A DNA stretch of 64,000 bases from assembly GCA_965205485.1 (NCBI GenBank), contig OZ242180.1, positions 1,952,001 to 2,016,000 on the forward strand, given 5' to 3'. Both the position numbers and the translations under genes were made by a program. Of the stretch, positions 54,388 through 63,085 are shown one piece after another. Origin of the DNA: Candidatus Latescibacterota bacterium (lineage in GTDB: Bacteria > Latescibacterota > UBA2968 > GCA-2709665). The notes beneath the pieces are model-generated. The model was not told the DNA's origin and searched no databases. It saw only the letters and a list, made by a program, of their open reading frames with translations. Positions within the stretch are counted from its first letter, which is position 1. The number at the start of each line of letters is the position of its first letter.

Positions 54388-57300
54388 TCAATCGTCCGCA
54401 GCCGTGGACTCCGCTACGGATTGCGCCTGCCCGTTGCCGCCGTGGGTTTCGTGGTCCAGCCTGACCGATACCAGCCTGGACACCCCCGGTTCTTCCATCG
54501 TAATCCCGTGCAGACAGTCCGCCGCGTCCATCGTCACCTTGTTGTGGGTCACCACGATGAACTGGGTGTCGGCCGCGAACCGCTTGAGGACACGCACGAA
54601 ACGGGTGACGTTGGCATCGTCCAGAGGAGCGTCGACCTCATCGAGGATGCAGAAAGGGCTGGGCTTGACCAGGTAGATCGCGAACAGGAGCGCAATCGCG
54701 GTGAGCGCCCGCTCTCCGCCTGAGAGCAGGTTGATGTGCTGGAGCCGCTTGCCTTTCGGGCGGGCGATGATCTCCAGCGGCGCCTCCAGCGGGTCCTCGT
54801 CCGGGGGCATCAGGAGATCCGCCTGACCTCCGTCGAAGAACGCCTCGAAAGTCTTCCGGAAGTTCTGCTTGATCTGATCGAACGTAACCATGAACCGGCC
54901 GCGGGCCGTCCTGTCGATGCGGGAAATGGTCCGCTGAAGGGTTTCGGCCGCCTCGAGCAGATCGCTCCGGTGTTTCGACATGAACTCGTGATGTTTTTTC
55001 TGGTCCTCGTACTCTTCCACGGCGCCCGGATTCACCGGACCCATCCGCCGGATCCGCTCGCGAAGCTCGTCTCTTTGCACTTCCGTTACGTCTGCATTGA
55101 ACTCCGGATCGTCCAGTGCGCCCGCTTCTCTGACGTCCACGTCGTACTCATCCAGAATTCGCGCCCGCAGGGCCTCGGCCCCGGTTCTCAGTTCCGCCAT
55201 CTCCGCCTGAAGCTGACCCAAACGGTCCCTGTTCCGATTCGCACGACGGTTCTTGTCCCGCACTTCCTCTTCGAGCTGGCGGGTATCCGTCAACAACGCC
55301 TGCTGGCGTTCCGCCTGCGTGTCCCGCTTCGATTCCAGTTCGTCCTGCCTGCGATGCAGGGTCTCCAGTTCCTTCCCGGATTCCTGCGCCGCCTTCTCCA
55401 GGCCGAGTCTTTCCTTTCGTCGTTCCTCGCAGTCGGCGACCAGTCGTGTCATCTCCTTCTCGGTTTCGGTCAGGTCCCGCGCCCACCGTTGCCCTTCGTG
55501 TTCGTGACGGTCCACGCTGGCTGTCAGCGATGCGATCTCCACCTGCCGGCCTGAGAACGCGTCCTGCCCGGCCCGCTGCTGATGTTCCTGCTCCCGCAAC
55601 GCAGCGTCCACGTCACCCGTAGCCGCTTCCAACCGCTCCCGGCGTTTCTCCAGCACGTTCAATTCCGCCGCCTCGGAAGCGATGGCTTCCCTCAGCCCGG
55701 TTTCGTCGGACGTCACCGCCGCGATTTCATCCCGCAATTCCACCTCCACGCGCAACTGTCGCTGCTCTTCCTCCCGGGCAATCTGCAGGTCCCTGCGGCT
55801 TGCGGCCAGGCGGTTGTTCAGGTCCGCAAGAATCCCGTCGGTTTCGTCGATACGGGCCTGTAATTCGTCCCGCGATGCAGTGGTCTCCTCGAGCCTCGTA
55901 TCCAGCGACTGCAGGTCCGCGCCCGCGGTGCTCAGGTTTGCTTCCAGCGTCTCAATCTCCTGCCTGCGCCCTATCAGGCCCGTTCCATCCTTGGCCGTCT
56001 TACCCCCGTAAATCGTACCGTCGGCTGAGAACAACTCGCCGTTCTCGGTCACCAGGTCCACGCCGAGAGACCTCATTTCATCCAGCAGCACAAGCGCGTA
56101 CCCGGCATTTTTCACCACCAGCGTCCGGTGAAGCAGCGCGTGAACCGGAGATTCCTCGCCGTGCAGGAGATCCGACGCCCTGCCCACCACGCCTTCCGCA
56201 TCCGGCGCCGACCACGGCGCGTCGTTACCGTTCGAAAGGGAGTCCAGCGGCAAAAACGCCGCTGATCCGAGGTCGCCTGACTGCAGGTAGTCGATGGCTT
56301 TCAATGCATCTGCCGGTTCGTCCACCAGAAGACATTCCAGCGCACGACCCAGGGCAGCTTCGATGGCGGTCGCGTATCGCCCGTCCACTTCAATCCGGTC
56401 TGCAACCACGCCGCGCACGCGATCGGCAAATGGAGATTCCACCGCCAGCGCGCGGACGCCGCTCGAATACCCCTCGAATCCCTCCCGAAGCTTCTTCAGC
56501 AGTCCGATCCTCGCATCGTCGGCCTCCCTTATGGCCAGCAACCGGCTGCGCTCTTCCGTCATCTCCTCCTGTCGTTCGATCAGCTGCTCGTACTTTGCGG
56601 CGTCAGTCTCCCTCAGCCGGCTCCTGTCGGCCACGGCGCGTTCCAGGCGATCGATCTGTCGTTCCGCTTCGCGGCTTGCGGCGTCCGCCGCCTCCTTGCG
56701 AAGCGCCGACTGCTTTGCATCGGCTTCGAGTCTGGCCTGGCGTTGTGTGATTCCCTCTAGTCTTGCCCGTCCGCGTTCCAACCGGCCGCTTCCTTCACTG
56801 AGTTCGCCCAGGGCGCTTATCAATTGGGACTTTTGTTCATCCGCACGGGTTCTCCGTGCGTCAAGCGCCTGGTTCGCCGCCTCCAGTTTGCCGCGCTCGG
56901 CCTCCAATGCGCGTTCCGCGTGTTGGTATGCCCCACGCGCCTCCGCCTCCAGCCGGCGTGCCTCTGCTGCTTCCTTCCGTGCAATATCCCGCCGGCGCGT
57001 CATGTCTTCCTTTCGCCGGGCCGCCTGCTTCAGGAAGGCGTCAATCGATCGGATTCTCTCCTGCGCTACCTGGATATGCGTGTCTTTCCTGTGTACGAGT
57101 TGACTCTGGCTGCTCACTTCCGCGTTCGCTTCTCTGAGCGCACGATCGCGTTCGGACAGTTCCGTCCGGACCTCTTCGAGGCGCGCTTCCAGGCGCGTGA
57201 CGTCTCCGGCGGCCACCTCGACGTCCTCTTTCAGGAACGCCATCTCATCCGCGACCGGGCGGGACCTATCGGACATCTGAAAGAACCGTTGTCGTCCGAG

Positions 57301-57984
57301 CCGGACTTCAAGGTCCTTCATCTGGTCGGATAGCTGCATATAGAGACGGGCTTTCCGCTCCTGCCTGGCGAGCGACTTCACCTGGCGCTCGACTTCCGCC
57401 ATGACGGCATCCACAGTCTGCAGATCCCTGCGGACGGACTCCAGTCGGTTCCACGCCGCCCGGCGCTGCACTTTGTACCGCGTTACCCCCGCCGCCTCCT
57501 CGAACAGCCGCCGCCTTTCTTCCGGTTTGTCGCTGATGATCTCATCCATCATCCCCTGCTCGATGACGGAATAGGCATGGGCGCCCAGCCCTGTATCCAT
57601 CAGCAGATTTTGAATATCCTTCAACCTGCAGGGGACCTTGTTGAGCAGATAGTCGCTGTCTCCGGACCGGAACAGCCGGCGGGTCACGGTCACTTCGGTG
57701 TAGTCAACAGGAAGAATCCGTTCCTCGTTGTCGATGGTGATGGATACCTCGGCCATGCCCAGCGGTTTCCGGTTCCGCGTTCCCGAAAAAATCACGTCTT
57801 CCATATTGTTGCTGCGCAACGACCGGACCCGCTGCTCGCCCAGCGCCCAGCGCAGGGCATCCACCACGTTGGATTTGCCGCAGCCGTTGGGGCCAACGAC
57901 GCAGGTAATGCCCTTCTGCAGCGAGAGATCCAGCTGTTGCACGAAGGACTTGAAGCCCAATGCCGTCAGTCGGGAAAGGTACAA
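54388..57984 (-). CDS. smc: Chromosome segregation protein SMC
   Basis: GFKSF, GPNGCGKSN, coiled coils, hinge, LSGGE, ILDEVDAPLD; TTG start with GGAGG RBS. Confidence 0.97.
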   Translation of the reverse strand: MYLSRLTALGFKSFVQQLDLSLQKGITCVVGPNGCGKSNVVDALRWALGEQRVRSLRSNNMEDVIFSGTRNRKPLGMAEVSITIDNEERILPVDYTEVTVTRRLFRSGDSDYLLNKVPCRLKDIQNLLMDTGLGAHAYSVIEQGMMDEIISDKPEERRRLFEEAAGVTRYKVQRRAAWNRLESVRRDLQTVDAVMAEVERQVKSLARQERKARLYMQLSDQMKDLEVRLGRQRFFQMSDRSRPVADEMAFLKEDVEVAAGDVTRLEARLEEVRTELSERDRALREANAEVSSQSQLVHRKDTHIQVAQERIRSIDAFLKQAARRKEDMTRRRDIARKEAAEARRLEAEARGAYQHAERALEAERGKLEAANQALDARRTRADEQKSQLISALGELSEGSGRLERGRARLEGITQRQARLEADAKQSALRKEAADAASREAERQIDRLERAVADRSRLRETDAAKYEQLIERQEEMTEERSRLLAIREADDARIGLLKKLREGFEGYSSGVRALAVESPFADRVRGVVADRIEVDGRYATAIEAALGRALECLLVDEPADALKAIDYLQSGDLGSAAFLPLDSLSNGNDAPWSAPDAEGVVGRASDLLHGEESPVHALLHRTLVVKNAGYALVLLDEMRSLGVDLVTENGELFSADGTIYGGKTAKDGTGLIGRRQEIETLEANLSTAGADLQSLDTRLEETTASRDELQARIDETDGILADLNNRLAASRRDLQIAREEEQRQLRVEVELRDEIAAVTSDETGLREAIASEAAELNVLEKRRERLEAATGDVDAALREQEHQQRAGQDAFSGRQVEIASLTASVDRHEHEGQRWARDLTETEKEMTRLVADCEERRKERLGLEKAAQESGKELETLHRRQDELESKRDTQAERQQALLTDTRQLEEEVRDKNRRANRNRDRLGQLQAEMAELRTGAEALRARILDEYDVDVREAGALDDPEFNADVTEVQRDELRERIRRMGPVNPGAVEEYEDQKKHHEFMSKHRSDLLEAAETLQRTISRIDRTARGRFMVTFDQIKQNFRKTFEAFFDGGQADLLMPPDEDPLEAPLEIIARPKGKRLQHINLLSGGERALTAIALLFAIYLVKPSPFCILDEVDAPLDDANVTRFVRVLKRFAADTQFIVVTHNKVTMDAADCLHGITMEEPGVSRLVSVRLDHETHGGNGQAQSVAESTAADD

Positions 57985-58362
57985 AGTTCCGCCTCCTGAA
58001 GAACACAGCTTCCATGTCCGGATGCACGGGACGAATCGGACGTGGCGCGACAGCAAGGACAAATCGCAAGCAGCGCCGATCCGCCGTATCATAGCCCGGA
58101 CTGCACCGGACGCTCGCTATTGACCTGAAATAGCGAGTATTACAATGAAAGGGGAAAGATGGGGAGGTGAGGAATACGCAACAGATTGGGGAATAACCCG
58201 TTGCGGTGTCTGAAAAGTACTACATCTTGTAGCGGCCGTCAAGACCAAATTCCCTCTTGCAATATGGGTGGCCTTTCAACACCGGCTTTTTTGATTTCCA
58301 ACCGCCGGTTTTTGGCTTACTTTATCGGATCGTACGCGCGGCCCCTATTTCGGAAACCCCTT

Positions 58363-59541
58363 ATGAACTGCGCTTTCTCCGATCCTATCGCCAGAGTCGA
58401 AAAGGTCGTCCTCCACGGCAGGCGGCCGCGTTCCATCGGGCGGAACGCGCGTATCGGCGACCATGGCCCGGCCGTCACCGATCCGGTCGTGCGCATCTCC
58501 ACGGCGGGCGGCGCCGTGGGCGTCGGCTGGTCTTCCCTGGACAGGGATCGCGCCGAAGCGCTGCTCGGCGTGCGCCCATCGGATCTTTTCGATCTTCCCG
58601 GCGGGTCAACCGGCGACGGCGCGGCCATCGATCTTCCACTGTGGGATCTGGCCGCCAGATGTGAAGGGGTGCCCATGTATCAGCTCCTGGGCGCGCGCGG
58701 TTCGCGCGAAGTCGAACTCTACGACGGCTCCATCTATATCGACGACCTGGGGGTTTCCGACAGCGAAGCGAGGAGGATCTTCCACGAGGAAGTCCGAACC
58801 GGGCACGACGCCGGCTACCGCAATTTCAAAATCAAAATCGGCCGCGGCGCGCGCTGGATGCCGGTCCGGGAAGGTACGGACCGGGACGTGCTGGTGATCC
58901 ACGCCGTCCGGCAGGCCGCGGGACCGGATGCGAAAGTCCTGATTGACGCCAACAACGGAACCACGCTCAATATCGCTCTGGACATCCTCGAACGCTGCCG
59001 CGACGCCGGGATCTACTGGTTCGAAGAGCCGTTTCCTGAAGACCGGGCGTTCAATGAGGCATTTAAGGAAGCCATCGAACGTTGGGGCTACAATACGTTC
59101 GTGGCGGACGGCGAGTCCGGGCCGCCGCCGCCGGACTTCTTCGATATGGTCGAAAGTGGATGGATCGATATCGTACAGCACGATTTCCGTTACAAGGGGC
59201 TCACATGGTGGAAAGCCACCGCGGAACGCATCGAACCCTGGGGTGCGCAGTGCGCCCCCCACTGCTGGGGTAGCGTCATCGAGCGATACGCCCACGCCCA
59301 CTTCGCCGCTTCCGTTCCCAACTACAGCCTCCTGGAAGCCGCCCCCGCGGAGATGCCCGGCATCGCCCTGGACGGGTGGCGGATGAAAGACGGCAGGCTG
59401 ACCGTGCCCGATACGCCCGGCGCGGGATTCGACGTCGAAACGGACGTGCTGGAACGGGGCGTGACGTCGGATGGCGGATTTCGCATCGGCATGCACGATC
59501 GCCAGCGCCCCCGACGCCCTTCGCCGGCACGCGTATCCTGA
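58363..59541 (+). CDS. Mandelate racemase/muconate lactonizing enzyme (enolase superfamily) protein
   Basis: IDLPLWDL, KIKIG, DAN, WFEEP, DGE, PH. Confidence 0.85.
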   Translation: MNCAFSDPIARVEKVVLHGRRPRSIGRNARIGDHGPAVTDPVVRISTAGGAVGVGWSSLDRDRAEALLGVRPSDLFDLPGGSTGDGAAIDLPLWDLAARCEGVPMYQLLGARGSREVELYDGSIYIDDLGVSDSEARRIFHEEVRTGHDAGYRNFKIKIGRGARWMPVREGTDRDVLVIHAVRQAAGPDAKVLIDANNGTTLNIALDILERCRDAGIYWFEEPFPEDRAFNEAFKEAIERWGYNTFVADGESGPPPPDFFDMVESGWIDIVQHDFRYKGLTWWKATAERIEPWGAQCAPHCWGSVIERYAHAHFAASVPNYSLLEAAPAEMPGIALDGWRMKDGRLTVPDTPGAGFDVETDVLERGVTSDGGFRIGMHDRQRPRRPSPARVS

Positions 59542-59551
59542 AAGGAAGTGC

Positions 59552-60643
59552 ATGCCAACGTACAACATCGCGGTACTCCCAGGAGACGGCGTCGGGCCGG
59601 AAGTGGTCGCGGAGGCGCTCAAGGTGCTTCTGGCGCTCGAGGAACCGCATCCCGATCTCCGTTTCACATTTTCCGAACACCGGGTTGGCGCCGGGTGTTA
59701 CGCCGAAACCGGGGTTGACCTTCCGGAATCCACGCTCGAGGCCTGCAAGCAGGCCGACGCCGTGCTCTTCGGCTCAGCCGGCGACCCGGACATCCGGTTT
59801 CCCGACGGCACGGAAATCGCACCGCAACTCACGCTGCGCTTCGAGCTGGACCTGTACGCCGGGATACGGCCCATCAGGAAATACCGTGGCGTGCCTCCGC
59901 TTCTGGACGGAAACCCGCCCCTCGACTACGTCATCATGCGAGAGAATACCGAGGGCCTCTACGCCTCCCGAGGCGCCGGGGTCCGCCTCGGAGACAGCCT
60001 CGCCGTGGACAACATGGTCATCACCCGCGCCGGTACCGAGCGGATCGTCAGATACGCTTTTGAAATCGCAAAGCAACGGAAGGGGGCGCCGGCCGACGGC
60101 AGGAGCCGCGTGACGTCAGTGGACAAGGCCAACATTCTGAAGAGCATGGCTTTTTTCAGGCAGATCTACGACGAGGTCGCGGAATCCTATCCCGGCATCG
60201 AACGGGACTATGCCTACGTGGACGCATTCACGGTGTACCAGCTTCGCAACCCCGCCTGGTACGACGTTGTCGTCGCGGAGAATATGTTCGGAGACATCAT
60301 CTCGGACCTGGCCGCAGCAACCATCGGCGGGATGGGGATGGCGCCCTCGGCCGACGTCGGCGACCGCTACGGCGTCTTCCAGCCGTCCCACGGCACCGCG
60401 CCGGATATTGCCGGGAGCGGTACCGCCAATCCCATGGCACAGATCCTCTCCGCCGGGATGATGCTATCGTGGCTGGGCGCACGCCATGACGATACGGAAG
60501 CCATCGCTGCCTCGGAGACGATCGACCGCGCGGTTGATCTGGCGCTGGGCGATCCGAAGAACCACCCGGCCGATCTCGGAGGCGCCGCCGGGACAACGAA
60601 AGTGGGCGACGCGGTGGCCGATGCCGTCGCGAACCCGGGTTAA
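59552..60643 (+). CDS. Isocitrate/isopropylmalate/tartrate dehydrogenase family protein
   Basis: LPGDGVGPEV, RENTEGLY, VDKANIL, NMFGDIISD, HGTAPDIAG. Confidence 0.9.
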   Translation: MPTYNIAVLPGDGVGPEVVAEALKVLLALEEPHPDLRFTFSEHRVGAGCYAETGVDLPESTLEACKQADAVLFGSAGDPDIRFPDGTEIAPQLTLRFELDLYAGIRPIRKYRGVPPLLDGNPPLDYVIMRENTEGLYASRGAGVRLGDSLAVDNMVITRAGTERIVRYAFEIAKQRKGAPADGRSRVTSVDKANILKSMAFFRQIYDEVAESYPGIERDYAYVDAFTVYQLRNPAWYDVVVAENMFGDIISDLAAATIGGMGMAPSADVGDRYGVFQPSHGTAPDIAGSGTANPMAQILSAGMMLSWLGARHDDTEAIAASETIDRAVDLALGDPKNHPADLGGAAGTTKVGDAVADAVANPG

Positions 60644-60660
60644 TACACGAGGAAAATGCC

Positions 60661-61983
60661 ATGACTAAAAAAGAAAAGAGGAGTCTCGTCAATCGCGCCG
60701 TGGGCGCCGAGTCGAAACGGGCACGGGTACTTTCGAGTAAGGTGCACGCATGGGCGGAACGGCCCTTCCGCGAAGTCAAGTCCTCGCGGGCGATCGCCGA
60801 CTACCTGGATTCTCGCGGCTTCGAGGTCGATTTCCCTTTCAACAAGATTCCCACGGCGTTTCGCGCAACCCGGGGAACCGGAGAACCGGCGGTCGGCATG
60901 CTGGGCGAATACGACGCCCTGCCCAACTGCGGCCCCGAAGAAGGTCAATGGGGTCACGGCTGAGGCCATAACCTCCTGGGCGTTGCCCCGGCCGTGGGTG
61001 CGGTCGCCGCTGCGAAGATCCTCGAATCAACCGGAATATCGGGCAAAATCGTGTACTACGGCTGTCCGGCGGAGGAAACCCTGGGTGGCAAAGTCTACAT
61101 GGCCCGCGACGGCGCCTTCCGGGACCTGGACGTCTGCCTTGCGTGGCATCCGGGGGATGAATCGGGCGTCAACAATTTCGGCGGGTCGTCGTTGGACTCC
61201 CTCGTCTATGAGTTTTTCGGCCGCACGGCCCACGGCGCGTCAGCCCACCGGGGCCGCAGCGCGCTGGACGGGGTGATGCTCACGGACGTCGCCGCCAACT
61301 ATCTCCGCGAGCACGTCCCCGAAAACGTCAGGATCCATTCCGTGATCCGCGACGGAGGCGACGCACCCAACGTGGTGCCGGCCTATGCGAAGATCTGGTA
61401 CTTCGTTCGAGGCAAGGACCGCGCGCAGGTCGACGACGTGCGGGAACGCCTCACCGCCTGCGCCAGGGGCGCCGCCAGGGCGACCGATACGAAGATGAAA
61501 TGGTCGCGAATCACCGCCGTGTACCCGCGTCTGCCCAACAAGGCGATGTGTGAAATCGTCCGAAAGAACCTCAAACTCTTCGGGCCTCCCAAACCGACGG
61601 AAGCCGACGTGAAGCACGCCGAAGGCCTCGGCTACAAGAAAGGTTTCAACACGAAGATCGCCAAGGGCAGCGGCTCGCAGGGACGGGGATCCACGGACGA
61701 GGACAACGTATCCTGGCTGGCCCCGCTGGGACGCTTCGAGATGGTCTGTTACGCGAAGGGAACGCCCGGCCACCACCGGGATATGGCCGCGCAGGCTGCC
61801 CTGCCCTTCGCCGATCGTGCGGTCCGGCAGACCGCGAAAGTCTTCGCCGGAAGCGCGGTCGACCTCTGCCGGGACCCGGAAAAACTGAAAAAGGCGCGCG
61901 CGGAGTTCGAAAAACGCTCGGAAGGATTCACATACGACCCGCTGGTTCGCAAGAGGCAGAAAGTACCCGTCGATCCGCCGTAG
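60661..61983 (+). CDS. M20D amidohydrolase (AbgB-like), candidate selenoprotein; in-frame TGA at 60961-60963 is codon 101
   Basis: GEYDALP...GHG*GHNLLG, GCPAEE, WHP, G-TAH, GRSALD, PNVVP, GSTD; both halves in the same frame, 440 codons in total. Confidence 0.8.
60975..61008 (+). promoter_or_regulatory. Candidate bacterial SECIS hairpin
   Basis: Hand-folded stem-loop just 3' of the UGA with G-starting apical loop. Confidence 0.55.
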
Positions 61984-62047
61984 CGGGGTCTCAAAGCTGT
62001 CTGGTATTGATCCGACCCGAAAAAACCCTCAGCCAGGGACAAAACAC

Positions 62048-63085
62048 ATGCCGGAAGTCACCCTCGAAGAAGCGCAGGCGGTCCACGATCGCTGCCTGAT
62101 CGTCGACGGCCACAACGACACGCCCGTGGAGCACGTACACCGGGGCGATCGTCCGATGGACCTGAAAAAGCGGGACCTCGCGTATCATATGGACATTCCT
62201 CGGATGCGTGAAGGCGGGTTCGACGCCGGCTTTTTCGTCGTCGGCAACGGTCCCACCGCAAACGTCCGTGTCACCCTCGAACAGACCCTGGCGTCGGTGG
62301 CGCTTTATCCCGACGACCTGATGCTGGTGTTCTCGTCCCGGGATGTTGAACGGGCGAAAGATTCCGGCAAGATCGGCATCCTGCTCACAATCGAAGGCGC
62401 CGGACGCTGGCTGGAAGGCGAAATGGATACATTGCGTCTCTACTACCGCCTGGGCGTTCGCTGCATCGGCATCACCCACGGCGAAGGCGGCGACGACCCC
62501 TCCCTGCTGCAGGGCAGCAGGAGTCCTTTCGGGCCGTGCACGCCTGAAGACCGCGAACGGGAACGCAGGAGCGCCAGCGGGCTGACGGACTTCGGAAAAG
62601 CCGTGCTGGAGGAGAGCAACCGGCTGGGCATCATCACGGACCTGGCCCATATCAACGACAAAGCGTTCTACCAGGTGCTGGAACAATCTTCGCTCCCGGT
62701 AACGATGACCCACACCGCGGCCTTTTCCGTCTGCAACCACTGGCGCTGCCTGACCGACGATCAGCTCAGGGCGCTGGCCGGGGCCGGCGGGGTGATGGGT
62801 ATCGCGTTTCTACCGGGATTTATCGATCCCGAAAACCCTTCCACGGACCGGATGGTCGACCATATCTGTCACGTGGCGGACCTGGTCGGCATCGACCACG
62901 TCGGCGTCGGCTCCGATTACGACGGCATGGGTTCGCAGAAGCCTGTTTTCGGAGACGTCTCGAAGCTTGTGCGCCTCACCCGCGCCATGCTCGCTCGCGG
63001 CCTCTCGGAAGACGAAATCCGGAAAGTCTGGGGAGGAAACTTCCTTCGACTCTTCCGTCATACCCTGGACCGAGGGCAGGCGTAG
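62048..63085 (+). CDS. Membrane dipeptidase family (M19) amidohydrolase
   Basis: DGHND, TIEG, DLAH, THT, GSDYDG, GGNFLR. Confidence 0.92.
   Translation: MPEVTLEEAQAVHDRCLIVDGHNDTPVEHVHRGDRPMDLKKRDLAYHMDIPRMREGGFDAGFFVVGNGPTANVRVTLEQTLASVALYPDDLMLVFSSRDVERAKDSGKIGILLTIEGAGRWLEGEMDTLRLYYRLGVRCIGITHGEGGDDPSLLQGSRSPFGPCTPEDRERERRSASGLTDFGKAVLEESNRLGIITDLAHINDKAFYQVLEQSSLPVTMTHTAAFSVCNHWRCLTDDQLRALAGAGGVMGIAFLPGFIDPENPSTDRMVDHICHVADLVGIDHVGVGSDYDGMGSQKPVFGDVSKLVRLTRAMLARGLSEDEIRKVWGGNFLRLFRHTLDRGQA

Follow-up and report, generated by a model that had tools for sequence, protein, structure and literature searches.

In the genome of a Candidatus Latescibacterota bacterium we identified a gene that very probably encodes a full-length M20D metallo-amidohydrolase in which a hairpin directs SelB and tRNA-Sec to decode UGA codon 101 as selenocysteine (Sec), and in which Sec101 would act as a non-redox metal ligand. 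The gene lies in the window, that is, the whole 64,000-nt stretch of DNA analyzed here, and the two features on which the argument turns are as follows:

60661-61983, + strand: coding sequence of the predicted Sec-containing M20D amidohydrolase, complete, 440 codons, stop codon TAG
60961-60963, + strand: UGA codon 101, predicted selenocysteine in GHG-U-GHNLLG, a conserved TGA versus Cys in homologs

One reading frame with a single conserved UGA

The open reading frames at 60661-60963 (100 aa) and 60994-61983 (329 aa) are in the same frame, and translated as a whole, 60661-61983 gives 440 residues; the TGA at 60961-60963 is the only internal stop, and there are no frameshifts. The preliminary description of this DNA had joined the two frames into one gene, had given the surrounding letters as GGT CAC GGC TGA GGC CAT AAC CTC CTG GGC (GHG*GHNLLG, the asterisk marking the TGA), and had listed several motifs as intact; the frame and the letters are as it gave them, and GEYDALP (residues 82-88), CPAEE (135-139), WHP (162-164), and GSTD (343-346) are all found in the 440-residue protein. 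It had also proposed a check of the sequencing reads. Contigs from four runs belonging to four studies span 60961-60963, and among the differences listed for them there is no alternative letter at these positions. The 22 sequencing runs listed for the locus include no RNA runs.

Orthologs (e value of 1e-100 or less) were found in 59 of the 168 genomes of the phylum, and 55 of these, comprising the source genome and 54 others, contain exactly one in-frame TGA, located at codon 101, in genes that are 68-100% identical and derive from three families. This TGA occupies the identical aligned codon in all 28 Sec-form loci among the 31 loci inspected and is invariant in the 34 unique Sec-form genes, whereas an ortholog from one genome (G059) has Cys at this position, as do all 27 aligned full-length homologs (58-76% identity), in which the Cys is invariant. 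Among 80 named MAG loci, codon 101 is TGA in 23 and TGC or TGT in 57. Judged from these alignments, the recurrence of TGA at codon 101 is far beyond chance, and the earlier proposal that the UGA is aligned to a conserved Cys, together with the TGA/Cys pairs that it suggested seeking in other genomes, is borne out by close and distant homologs alike.

The reading frame is strictly maintained in all orthologs, and selection acts on both sides of the UGA. In seven pairs dN/dS is 0.11-0.21 upstream and 0.05-0.12 downstream, so that the 3' half, for which relaxed selection had been named as evidence against the Sec reading, is under strong purifying selection. Codons 102-106 (GHNLL), which precede any possible restart codon, are invariant in amino acids and vary at synonymous sites. 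Alternatively, the TGA could be an error of sequencing or assembly, or the gene could have become a pseudogene recently, dead after TGY mutated to TGA. This would take only a single substitution and would agree with public gene callers, which take the TGA as a stop and shorten the Sec-form proteins to fragments of 294-351 aa, but it is refuted by the occurrence of the TGA in 55 genomes from three families, at identities as low as 68%, by the contigs from four studies, and by dN/dS values of 0.05-0.21 across both sides of a gene without other stops or frameshifts, which leaves it a negligible probability. The single-TGA frame was correctly observed, and both error and pseudogene can be dismissed.

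The UGA might also terminate translation in a functional split gene, so that the product is an N-terminal piece of 100 aa, either alone or alongside a C-terminal protein with its own initiation, and in the source genome a GTG at 60994 does start the 329-aa frame. However, codons 102-111, which extend from the UGA to this GTG, are conserved in amino acids and vary synonymously, codon 112 is GCA or GCG (Ala) and hence no start in 14 of the 34 unique orthologs, and the strict maintenance of the frame likewise argues against two separate genes. A split would in addition part Sec/Cys101 and His103 from the remaining active site, and His103, the codon of which sits between the UGA and any possible restart, would belong to neither piece. 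We consider a split gene extremely improbable.

Selenocysteine machinery and the hairpin downstream of the UGA

The preliminary description had proposed a search for the Sec machinery, and all of its components are present in the source genome: selA (470 bits), selB (357.6 bits), a tRNA-SeC(tca) gene that adjoins both, and selD, which has an in-frame TGA of its own in the motif CGUAAK. Across the ortholog-bearing genomes, SelA was found in 54 of the 55 with the Sec form and in none of the four with the Cys form; the one Sec-form genome in which it was not found (G032) is 91% complete and consists of 430 contigs. In the source genome TGA is used as a stop more often than TAA or TAG, closing 1,200 of 2,115 long frames, and it is therefore not reassigned.

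Two RNA elements follow the UGA:

60989-61006, + strand: SECIS-like hairpin with a 7-bp stem (60989-60995 paired with 61000-61006) and a GGGU tetraloop (60996-60999), 32 nt after the UGA
60978-60988, + strand: small GGGC-GUU-GCCC hairpin from the RNAalifold consensus, directly 5' of the SECIS-like hairpin

The SECIS-like hairpin (+29 to +46) is paired at every stem position in each of 31 distinct sequences; at pair 30-45, 28 of them have GC, two AU, and one GU, at pair 35-40, 18 have UG and 13 CG, and the loop is GGGU or AGGU (RGGU). Its energy is -9.3 kcal/mol in the source gene and -7.5 kcal/mol or lower in 33 of 34 sequences. The published bSECIS model (PMC13188914) specifies a loop of 3-9 nt with a G in the first two loop positions, a stem of 4-16 bp, a spacing of 16-37 nt, and a minimum free energy of -7.5 kcal/mol or less, and the hairpin agrees with this model in its loop (4 nt), stem (7 bp), spacing (32 nt), and energy. 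The selD gene of the source genome has a 7-bp hairpin as well, with a GGUC loop.

Codons 107-116, which overlap the hairpin, form the region of lowest synonymous variation in the gene, with a mean synonymous entropy of 0.24 over 9 columns compared with 1.44 over the 149 columns elsewhere (Mann-Whitney p = 3.7e-7). Covariation within the hairpin is limited, as a single pair is changed on both sides, in two sequences, and the stem is otherwise nearly invariant; the covariation pair-count was reached by 77 of 500 shuffles. The fold of 60961-61030 is no stabler than shuffled sequences (z = 0.49), which in this GC-rich gene makes stability alone uninformative. The four pairs of the small GGGC-GUU-GCCC hairpin never vary and thus provide covariation evidence neither for nor against it; it is possibly a lower element. 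A rival 12-bp hairpin, the minimum-free-energy fold of the source sequence, was rejected as the conserved element because its pair 29-36 is unpaired in 16 of the 31 distinct sequences and no compensatory change was seen among them. Rfam returned three matches for 60600-62100 at e values up to 10, all far below the gathering scores and none over the hairpin. The Cys forms do not keep the hairpin: four of the seven pairs are present in Cys-form locus L038 and 0-5 (mode 2) in the 57 distant loci.

Read-through alone does not identify the inserted residue, and the homologs have Cys, so it has to be weighed whether near-cognate suppression or a variant code, independently of the Sec pathway, places Cys, Trp, or Gly at the UGA. 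The use of TGA as the commonest stop in this genome, the complete Sec pathway, found alongside the TGA in 54 of 55 Sec-form genomes but in none of the four Cys-form genomes, and the constrained bSECIS-type hairpin after the UGA all speak against such a reading, and we regard it as very unlikely. UGA codon 101 is almost certainly decoded as Sec where the relatives have a metal-holding Cys. In the mechanism that we infer, SelB and tRNA-Sec would read this codon under the direction of the intragenic hairpin, which has a 7-bp stem and an RGGU loop and lies 32 nt downstream.

Enzyme family, active site, and gene neighborhood

Residues 26-373 match TIGR01891 with 186.3 bits (cut-off 153.75) and residues 184-272 match the M20_dimer model PF07687 with 28.9 bits; the Pfam catalytic domain PF01546 gave no match to the source protein at an e value of 0.001 or less, and precomputed matches to it exist in many homologs. 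The AlphaFold model of the 440-aa protein has a pLDDT of 89.1 and a pTM of 0.90, and its best Foldseek match is HmrA (3RAM; TM 0.80/0.90), followed by PM20D2, CsAga, and AbgB. As judged from the profile matches and this predicted structure, the protein is an M20D (TIGR01891) amidohydrolase with the fold of a catalytic domain and an inserted dimerization domain. The codons of the presumed active site, in addition to the UGA, are:

60967-60969, + strand: His103, second residue after Sec in the U-G-H motif, ligand role by homology
61072-61077, + strand: Glu138-Glu139 (PAEE), presumed general base and metal ligand, by homology
61147-61149, + strand: His163 (WHP), presumed metal ligand, aligned with IHPG of HmrA
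61771-61776, + strand: His371-His372 (GHHR), presumed last metal ligand

These residues, which we take to be the M20D metal-ligand and catalytic set, are invariant in the alignment of full-length homologs. In HmrA and PM20D2 the counterpart of Sec101 is the Cys of GHACGHN; His103 aligns with the His of this motif in HmrA, PAEE with CPAEE of HmrA and PAEE of PM20D2, and GHHRD with GHTHR of HmrA. A review (PMC11511702) describes the corresponding Cys of CsAga, an M20D enzyme, as a bridge between its two zinc ions. Sec101 would substitute for the conserved Cys of H-x-C-G-H, the residue that in M20D enzymes coordinates both catalytic metal ions as a bridge, and therefore its selenolate, together with His103, Glu139, His163, and His371/372, would hold the dimetal center. 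This center would activate water for hydrolysis of an amide bond, with selenium in a non-redox role as a metal ligand, and the product would be an M20D-type dipeptidase or aminoacylase. By analogy with the [NiFeSe] hydrogenases (PMC13188914), it is plausible that Sec as the bridging ligand resists irreversible oxidation or alters metal affinity.

Four neighboring genes recur at Sec-form loci:

58186-59541, + strand: enolase-superfamily gene (MR/MLE, acid-sugar-dehydratase-like), upstream; PF13378, 132.5 bits
59471-60643, + strand: isopropylmalate/tartrate-dehydrogenase-like gene, directly upstream; PF00180, 299.6 bits
62048-63085, + strand: M19 membrane-dipeptidase-family gene, downstream; PF01244, 273.1 bits
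63173-64000, + strand: medium-chain Zn-dependent dehydrogenase gene, downstream, running off the window; PF00107, 67.7 bits

Of 23 Sec-form loci, 19 have the isopropylmalate/tartrate-dehydrogenase-like gene directly upstream, compared with none of the 57 distant Cys-form loci; the match of this gene to PF00180 begins at residue 32, its true start is probably later than 59471, and its score against TIGR02088 (310.6) is below the cut-off of 409.8. The enolase-superfamily gene, which accompanies 15 of the 23 Sec-form loci, has 3N4F as its best PDB match (240.8 bits) and scores below the cut-off of every NCBIfam equivalog. The M19 dipeptidase gene is present in 14 and the Zn-dependent dehydrogenase gene in 18 of these loci, one of the latter being a 76-aa partial match. 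Among the neighbors as a whole, NCBIfam equivalog matches were found only below cut-off and PDB matches are mostly to unnamed or generic family members. The conservation of these four neighbors suggests a small operon devoted to the catabolism of a hydroxy or amino acid in peptide or amide linkage.

The majority of selenoproteins catalyze redox reactions (PMC13188914) and two dehydrogenases are encoded among the neighbors, both of which would suit a protein in which Sec is inserted for a different chemistry, such as a redox reaction, C-S/C-Se or C-halogen cleavage, or selenium or heavy-metal handling. Yet all the other M20D residues (His103, Glu138/139, His163, and His371/372) are invariant, and on the tree Sec forms are intermingled with Cys forms, with at least four switches by parsimony, a pattern that favors a shared reaction. 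A different chemistry is accordingly very unlikely, and we retain the metallo-amidohydrolase with a metal-bound selenolate as the preferred reading.

Novelty and comparison with known systems

To our knowledge, nearly all characterized selenoenzymes use Sec for redox chemistry, and where Sec binds a metal, as in formate dehydrogenase (Mo/W) and hydrogenase (Ni), the enzyme is still an oxidoreductase. The preliminary description had set this gene apart from such enzymes as a non-redox Sec hydrolase. With respect to the family the distinction stands, in that no M20 or amidohydrolase family is among the 119 prokaryotic selenoprotein families of a 2026 catalogue (a comparison outside which the groundwater-MAG selenoprotein study of Deng et al. 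falls); with respect to non-redox selenoproteins in general it does not, as these have already been predicted, and the catalogue lists UshA-like, glutamine-amidotransferase-like, and MerB-like Sec proteins (PMC13188914). A literature search by title or abstract found no published Sec-containing M20 enzyme or amidohydrolase; one paper (PMC5658510) covers both selenoprotein and M20/amidohydrolase topics, in unrelated contexts.

We lean toward the view that this would be the first selenium-dependent metallohydrolase, with a selenolate bridging the M20D dimetal center, and that it has long been kept in Latescibacterota living mostly in sponges and the sea, on account of a change that selenium makes to the metal preference, Lewis acidity, or oxidation resistance of a non-redox hydrolytic site. 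If true, Lewis-acid catalysis would be added to the biochemistry of selenium, by way of a Sec bridging the metals in a hydrolase, and the natural Sec/Cys pair, with its several switches, would allow a clean test of the benefit of selenium at a metal site. Gene callers cut the protein at the UGA, and the Sec-form family is therefore invisible in public annotation, which systematically truncates it to a fragment without two metal ligands, a point of consequence for the metabolic reconstruction of sponge symbionts.

The protein had also been described as an AbgB-like M20D enzyme. The M20D assignment holds, with TIGR01891 above its cut-off, but other enzymes are closer than AbgB: among solved structures HmrA scores 149 bits and human PM20D2 116 bits, whereas AbgB (3IO1; p-aminobenzoyl-glutamate hydrolase subunit B), although likewise a member of the M20D superfamily and a significant fold match, scores just 28 bits. 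In AbgB operons an AbgA partner and the AbgT transporter are encoded nearby; no AbgA-like second M20 gene or transporter was seen among the neighbors examined here, which are enolase-like, isopropylmalate-dehydrogenase-like, M19, and alcohol-dehydrogenase-like genes, and AbgB was rejected as the identity of the protein. JGI names homologs after AbgB.

HmrA of Staphylococcus aureus (3RAM), an M20D Met-X carboxydipeptidase and the best match among solved structures, agrees with the source protein in its two-domain architecture and in the motifs GHACGHN, CPAEE, HPG, and GH, but it has Cys in place of UGA/Sec, is only ~26% identical, and differs in gene context, hmrA being paired with ldmS in staphylococci according to PMC9486568. 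The second-best match, human PM20D2 (7YH4, 8ZEI; a beta-alanyl-lysine/Xaa-Arg dipeptidase, fold TM 0.78), has GHACGHN and PAEE in common with the source protein but is a eukaryotic Cys enzyme of ~25% identity. Far closer are metagenomic orthologs from Planctomycetota, Verrucomicrobiota, and unnamed sources, which are 56-76% identical across 440 aa and keep the invariant residues and the motif WGHG-C-GHNLLG, with Cys (TGC/TGT) in place of the UGA; they are annotated as "amidohydrolase" or "aminobenzoyl-glutamate utilization protein B." In L038 the Cys form goes together with the lack of both the hairpin and, in its genome, SelA. The replacement of a Cys metal ligand by Sec has counterparts in FdhA (Mo/W) and the [NiFeSe] hydrogenases (Ni), for which Cys homologs likewise exist (PMC13188914); those are redox enzymes, whereas the protein described here would place selenium in a hydrolytic dimetal center, presumably of Zn, Mn, or Co.

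Conservation of an in-frame TGA in an amidohydrolase gene

The preliminary description had joined two same-frame ORFs (60661–60963 and 60994–61983) into a single amidohydrolase gene with a candidate selenocysteine (Sec) at a metal-ligand cysteine. ORF listing and translation confirmed one 440-codon frame whose sole internal stop is, as claimed, the TGA at 60961–60963 (codon 101), in the context GGT CAC GGC TGA GGC CAT AAC CTC CTG GGC (GHG*GHNLLG), and all four motifs named in that description (GEYDALP, CPAEE, WHP, and GSTD) were found in the translated frame. Among 61 genomes, comprising the window's own and its 60 nearest relatives, 52 have a match at E ≤ 1e-40, and exactly one in-frame TGA is present in 49 of these. 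In a sample of 168 genomes from the phylum, 59 match at E ≤ 1e-100; 55 of them, from three families and with 68–100% identity, contain one TGA, and the remaining four orthologs contain no in-frame stop. We excised 31 loci and found that TGA is codon 101 of GHGUGHNLLG in all 28 of the Sec type (Sec forms), that the ortholog in phylum genome G059 (68% identical) encodes GHGCGHNLLG, that is, Cys (a Cys form), and that two paralog-like genes (37–40% identical) encode GHACGHH. We also compared this codon in 80 named genome_contigs loci. TGA is present in 23 of them (70–98% identical), whose titles give Candidatus Latescibacterota, "Gemmatimonadota" or unclassified MAGs, and TGC or TGT is present in the other 57 (35–45% identical), whose sources are Acidobacteriota, Planctomycetota, Aminicenantes, KSB1, and Clostridia.

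If the locus were instead two separate genes, the second would open with the GTG at codon 112; however, 14 of 34 unique orthologs have GCA or GCG at this codon, and the split would leave Sec101 and His103 apart from the other active-site residues. Codons 102–106 (GHNLL), which follow the UGA and precede any candidate restart codon, are invariant in amino acid sequence while using two to four synonymous codons each. TGA ends 1200 of the 2115 stop-to-stop frames of at least 400 codons in the window's genome, making it the commonest stop, and therefore it is not reassigned. A sequencing error or pseudogene is rejected because the TGA is shared by 55 genomes, dN/dS in seven pairwise comparisons is low on both sides of it (0.11–0.21 for codons 1–100 and 0.05–0.12 for codons 102–440), and four sequencing runs agree. 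Among the differences listed for contigs from these four runs (X1, X5, X6, and X7), each from a different study, which left aside 17 weaker ones, no other letter occurs at 60961–60963, and many are listed elsewhere in the same contigs. The runs that hold part of the gene (X5–X22) are by label mostly sponge metagenomes, with a few labelled marine or coral-reef.

The terminal stops of the 34 unique Sec-form genes are TAG (29) or TAA (5), the window's own being at 61981–61983. TGA accounts for 57% of long-frame ends in the window's genome, yet it never terminates a Sec form, whereas it does so in all three non-Sec relatives examined. Because the Sec-form sequences are related, this absence may be inherited and need not mean that a second UGA is avoided.

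Selenocysteine machinery and a putative recoding hairpin

In the window's genome (G000; 5.13 Mb in one contig), SelA scores 470 bits and SelB 357.6 bits with an adjoining stretch, and a tRNA-SeC(tca) at 3228602–3228699 comes directly after selA and selB. SelD is also encoded (362.6 bits), and its gene is itself a selenoprotein gene, with an in-frame TGA in the classical context:

G000:C1:2394761–2395684, minus strand, outside the window: selD, with in-frame TGA in ...TCGUAAK...

Using a threshold of E ≤ 1e-60 for SelA across the phylum sample, we found strong matches in 54 of the 55 TGA-form genomes and in none of the four Cys-form genomes, including G059; neither genome of the G059 genus has one. 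The sole TGA-form genome lacking SelA at this threshold (G032) is 91% complete in 430 contigs, and the gap is likely a matter of missing assembly.

Synonymous variation in the 34 unique Sec-form genes was measured at conserved codons of four-fold or higher degeneracy. The lowest window of the gene is codons 107–116, where nine such codons have a mean entropy of 0.24 bits versus 1.44 bits for the other 149 (Mann–Whitney p = 3.7e-7). RNAalifold placed two hairpins within this region, the second of which resembles a SECIS element, the hairpin that directs Sec insertion:

60989–61006, plus strand: SECIS-like hairpin, +29 to +46 from the U of UGA, 7-bp stem, tetraloop GGGU or AGGU

Across the 31 distinct rows of the 34-sequence alignment, all cells of this stem are standard pairs, including pair 30–45 (G-C in 28 rows, A-U in two, and G-U in one) and pair 35–40 (U-G in 18 and C-G in 13), while slid controls pair in only 36–63% of cells. 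Covariation is modest: a single pair has changes on both sides, a pair count that 77 of 500 shuffles also reach. The window's own sequence has its minimum free energy in a competing 12-bp hairpin; this fold was rejected, as one of its pairs has 16 unpaired cells and it shows no compensatory change. The 7-bp hairpin alone has a folding energy of −9.3 kcal/mol here and of −7.5 or lower in 33 of 34 sequences. The bacterial SECIS model described in a 2026 review (PMC13188914) has a 3–9 nt loop with G in its first two positions, a 4–16 bp stem, MFE ≤ −7.5, and 16–37 nt spacing, and the 7-bp hairpin, with a spacing of 32 nt, falls within these constraints. A hairpin at +14 to +31 in selD of the same genome has a 7-bp stem capped by a GGUC tetraloop. 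Of the seven pairs of the SECIS-like stem at 60989–61006, the Cys ortholog L038 can form only four, and the 57 distant Cys loci zero to five (mode 2).

Enzyme family, active site, and gene neighborhood

The read-through protein (P0001) scores 186.3 bits against the NCBIfam model TIGR01891 "amidohydrolase" (cut-off 153.75 bits) and 28.9 bits against Pfam M20_dimer; the Pfam catalytic-domain model gave no match at the default threshold. HmrA of S. aureus (3RAM, 149 bits) is the top sequence match among solved structures, where human PM20D2 (7YH4/8XZC) scores about 116 bits and AbgB (3IO1) 28 bits. In sequence alignments GHG-C/U-GHN superposes on GHACGHN in both HmrA and PM20D2, and CPAEE aligns to their CPAEE/PAEE. 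With a 28-sequence alignment as input, AlphaFold gave a model (mean pLDDT 89.1, pTM 0.90) for which Foldseek likewise ranks HmrA first (TM 0.80/0.90), ahead of PM20D2, the Corynebacterium acylglutamine aminoacylase CsAga (6SLF), 4EWT, AbgB, YxeP, and ILL2. According to a review (PMC11511702), the two zinc ions of the M20D enzyme CsAga are bridged by a Cys. His103, Glu138, Glu139, His163, and His371/372 are invariant among homologs. From this invariance and by homology with M20D enzymes, His103, Glu139, His163, and His371/372 are the presumed other metal ligands and Glu138 the presumed general base.

The gene is the third of five on the same strand:

54388–58092, minus strand: SMC chromosome-segregation gene (1234 aa), divergent from the cluster and its upstream boundary
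58186–59541, plus strand: enolase-superfamily gene
59471–60643, plus strand: isopropylmalate/tartrate-dehydrogenase-like gene
60661–61983, plus strand: Sec amidohydrolase gene
62048–63085, plus strand: M19 dipeptidase gene
63173 onward, plus strand: Zn-dependent dehydrogenase gene

The enolase-like and isopropylmalate-dehydrogenase-like ORFs overlap by 71 bases (59471–59541); the Pfam match of the latter starts at residue 32, and therefore its true start is probably downstream of 59471. In a survey of 23 Sec-form loci with 3-kb flanks and 57 distant Cys loci, the isopropylmalate/tartrate-dehydrogenase-like gene lies directly upstream in 19 Sec-form loci, and the Zn-dehydrogenase, enolase-like, and M19 genes occur at 18 (one partial), 15, and 14, respectively; none of the four is found beside the 57 Cys loci. 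No neighbor gene reaches an NCBIfam equivalog cut-off, and their PDB matches are generic. Our best guess for the substrate is a dipeptide or an N-acyl amino/hydroxy acid that would feed a short catabolic route.

Sec/Cys switches and relation to known selenoproteins

A search of 5.8 billion clustered proteins listed many full-length homologs (435–460 aa, 56–76% identical), few of them named: "amidohydrolase" (Planctomycetota, Phycisphaerae, Kiritimatiellae, Chthoniobacteraceae) or, from JGI, "aminobenzoyl-glutamate utilization protein B". Cys occupies position 101 in all 27 aligned full-length homologs. Among the matches listed, no full-length protein exceeds 76% identity, and closer relatives appear only as fragments of 294–351 aa (16 of 120). 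The five fragments inspected (P0020, P0040, P0059, P0077, and P0088; 320–336 aa) all start just after the Sec codon, one being named [quoted passage not shown]. In public gene calls, members of this family are N-terminally cut and lack two predicted metal ligands; the clusters of P0077, P0020, and P0059 hold 217, 94, and 55 member sequences.

A FastTree phylogeny of 34 Sec forms, 104 Cys forms, and two outgroups, with 17 listed proteins shorter than 430 aa left out, resolved the Sec forms into four groups interleaved with Cys forms, and the smallest clade containing all Sec forms (support 0.83) includes 18 Cys tips. Parsimony gives at least four Sec/Cys switches from a Cys root, with some separating nodes weak (0.50–0.67).

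Taken together, 60661–61983 is a genuine, well-supported selenoprotein gene, with Sec insertion and metal ligation predicted. The 119 prokaryotic selenoprotein families and subfamilies compiled in Table 1 of PMC13188914 include no M20, amidohydrolase, or peptidase entry, and the terms amidohydrolase, M20, peptidase, hydrolase, aminoacylase, and hippur- are absent from the text of that review and of a 2022 review (PMC9312934), as well as from the deep-Sep paper and its four supplementary files. NCBIfam release 20 holds no selenoprotein-specific model for the read-through protein, and full-text literature searches, whose coverage stopped short of the candidate list of a groundwater-MAG study cited in PMC13188914, returned nothing relevant. 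The Sec form of this known amidohydrolase family appears to be uncatalogued. According to PMC13188914, ligand binding, mostly of metals, is predicted for about a fifth of known selenoprotein families, and UshA-like, glutamine-amidotransferase-like, and MerB-like families are predicted non-redox Sec proteins; therefore, neither property is new by itself. What is new is Sec at the predicted bridging position of a hydrolytic dimetal center in an enzyme of a metallopeptidase family.
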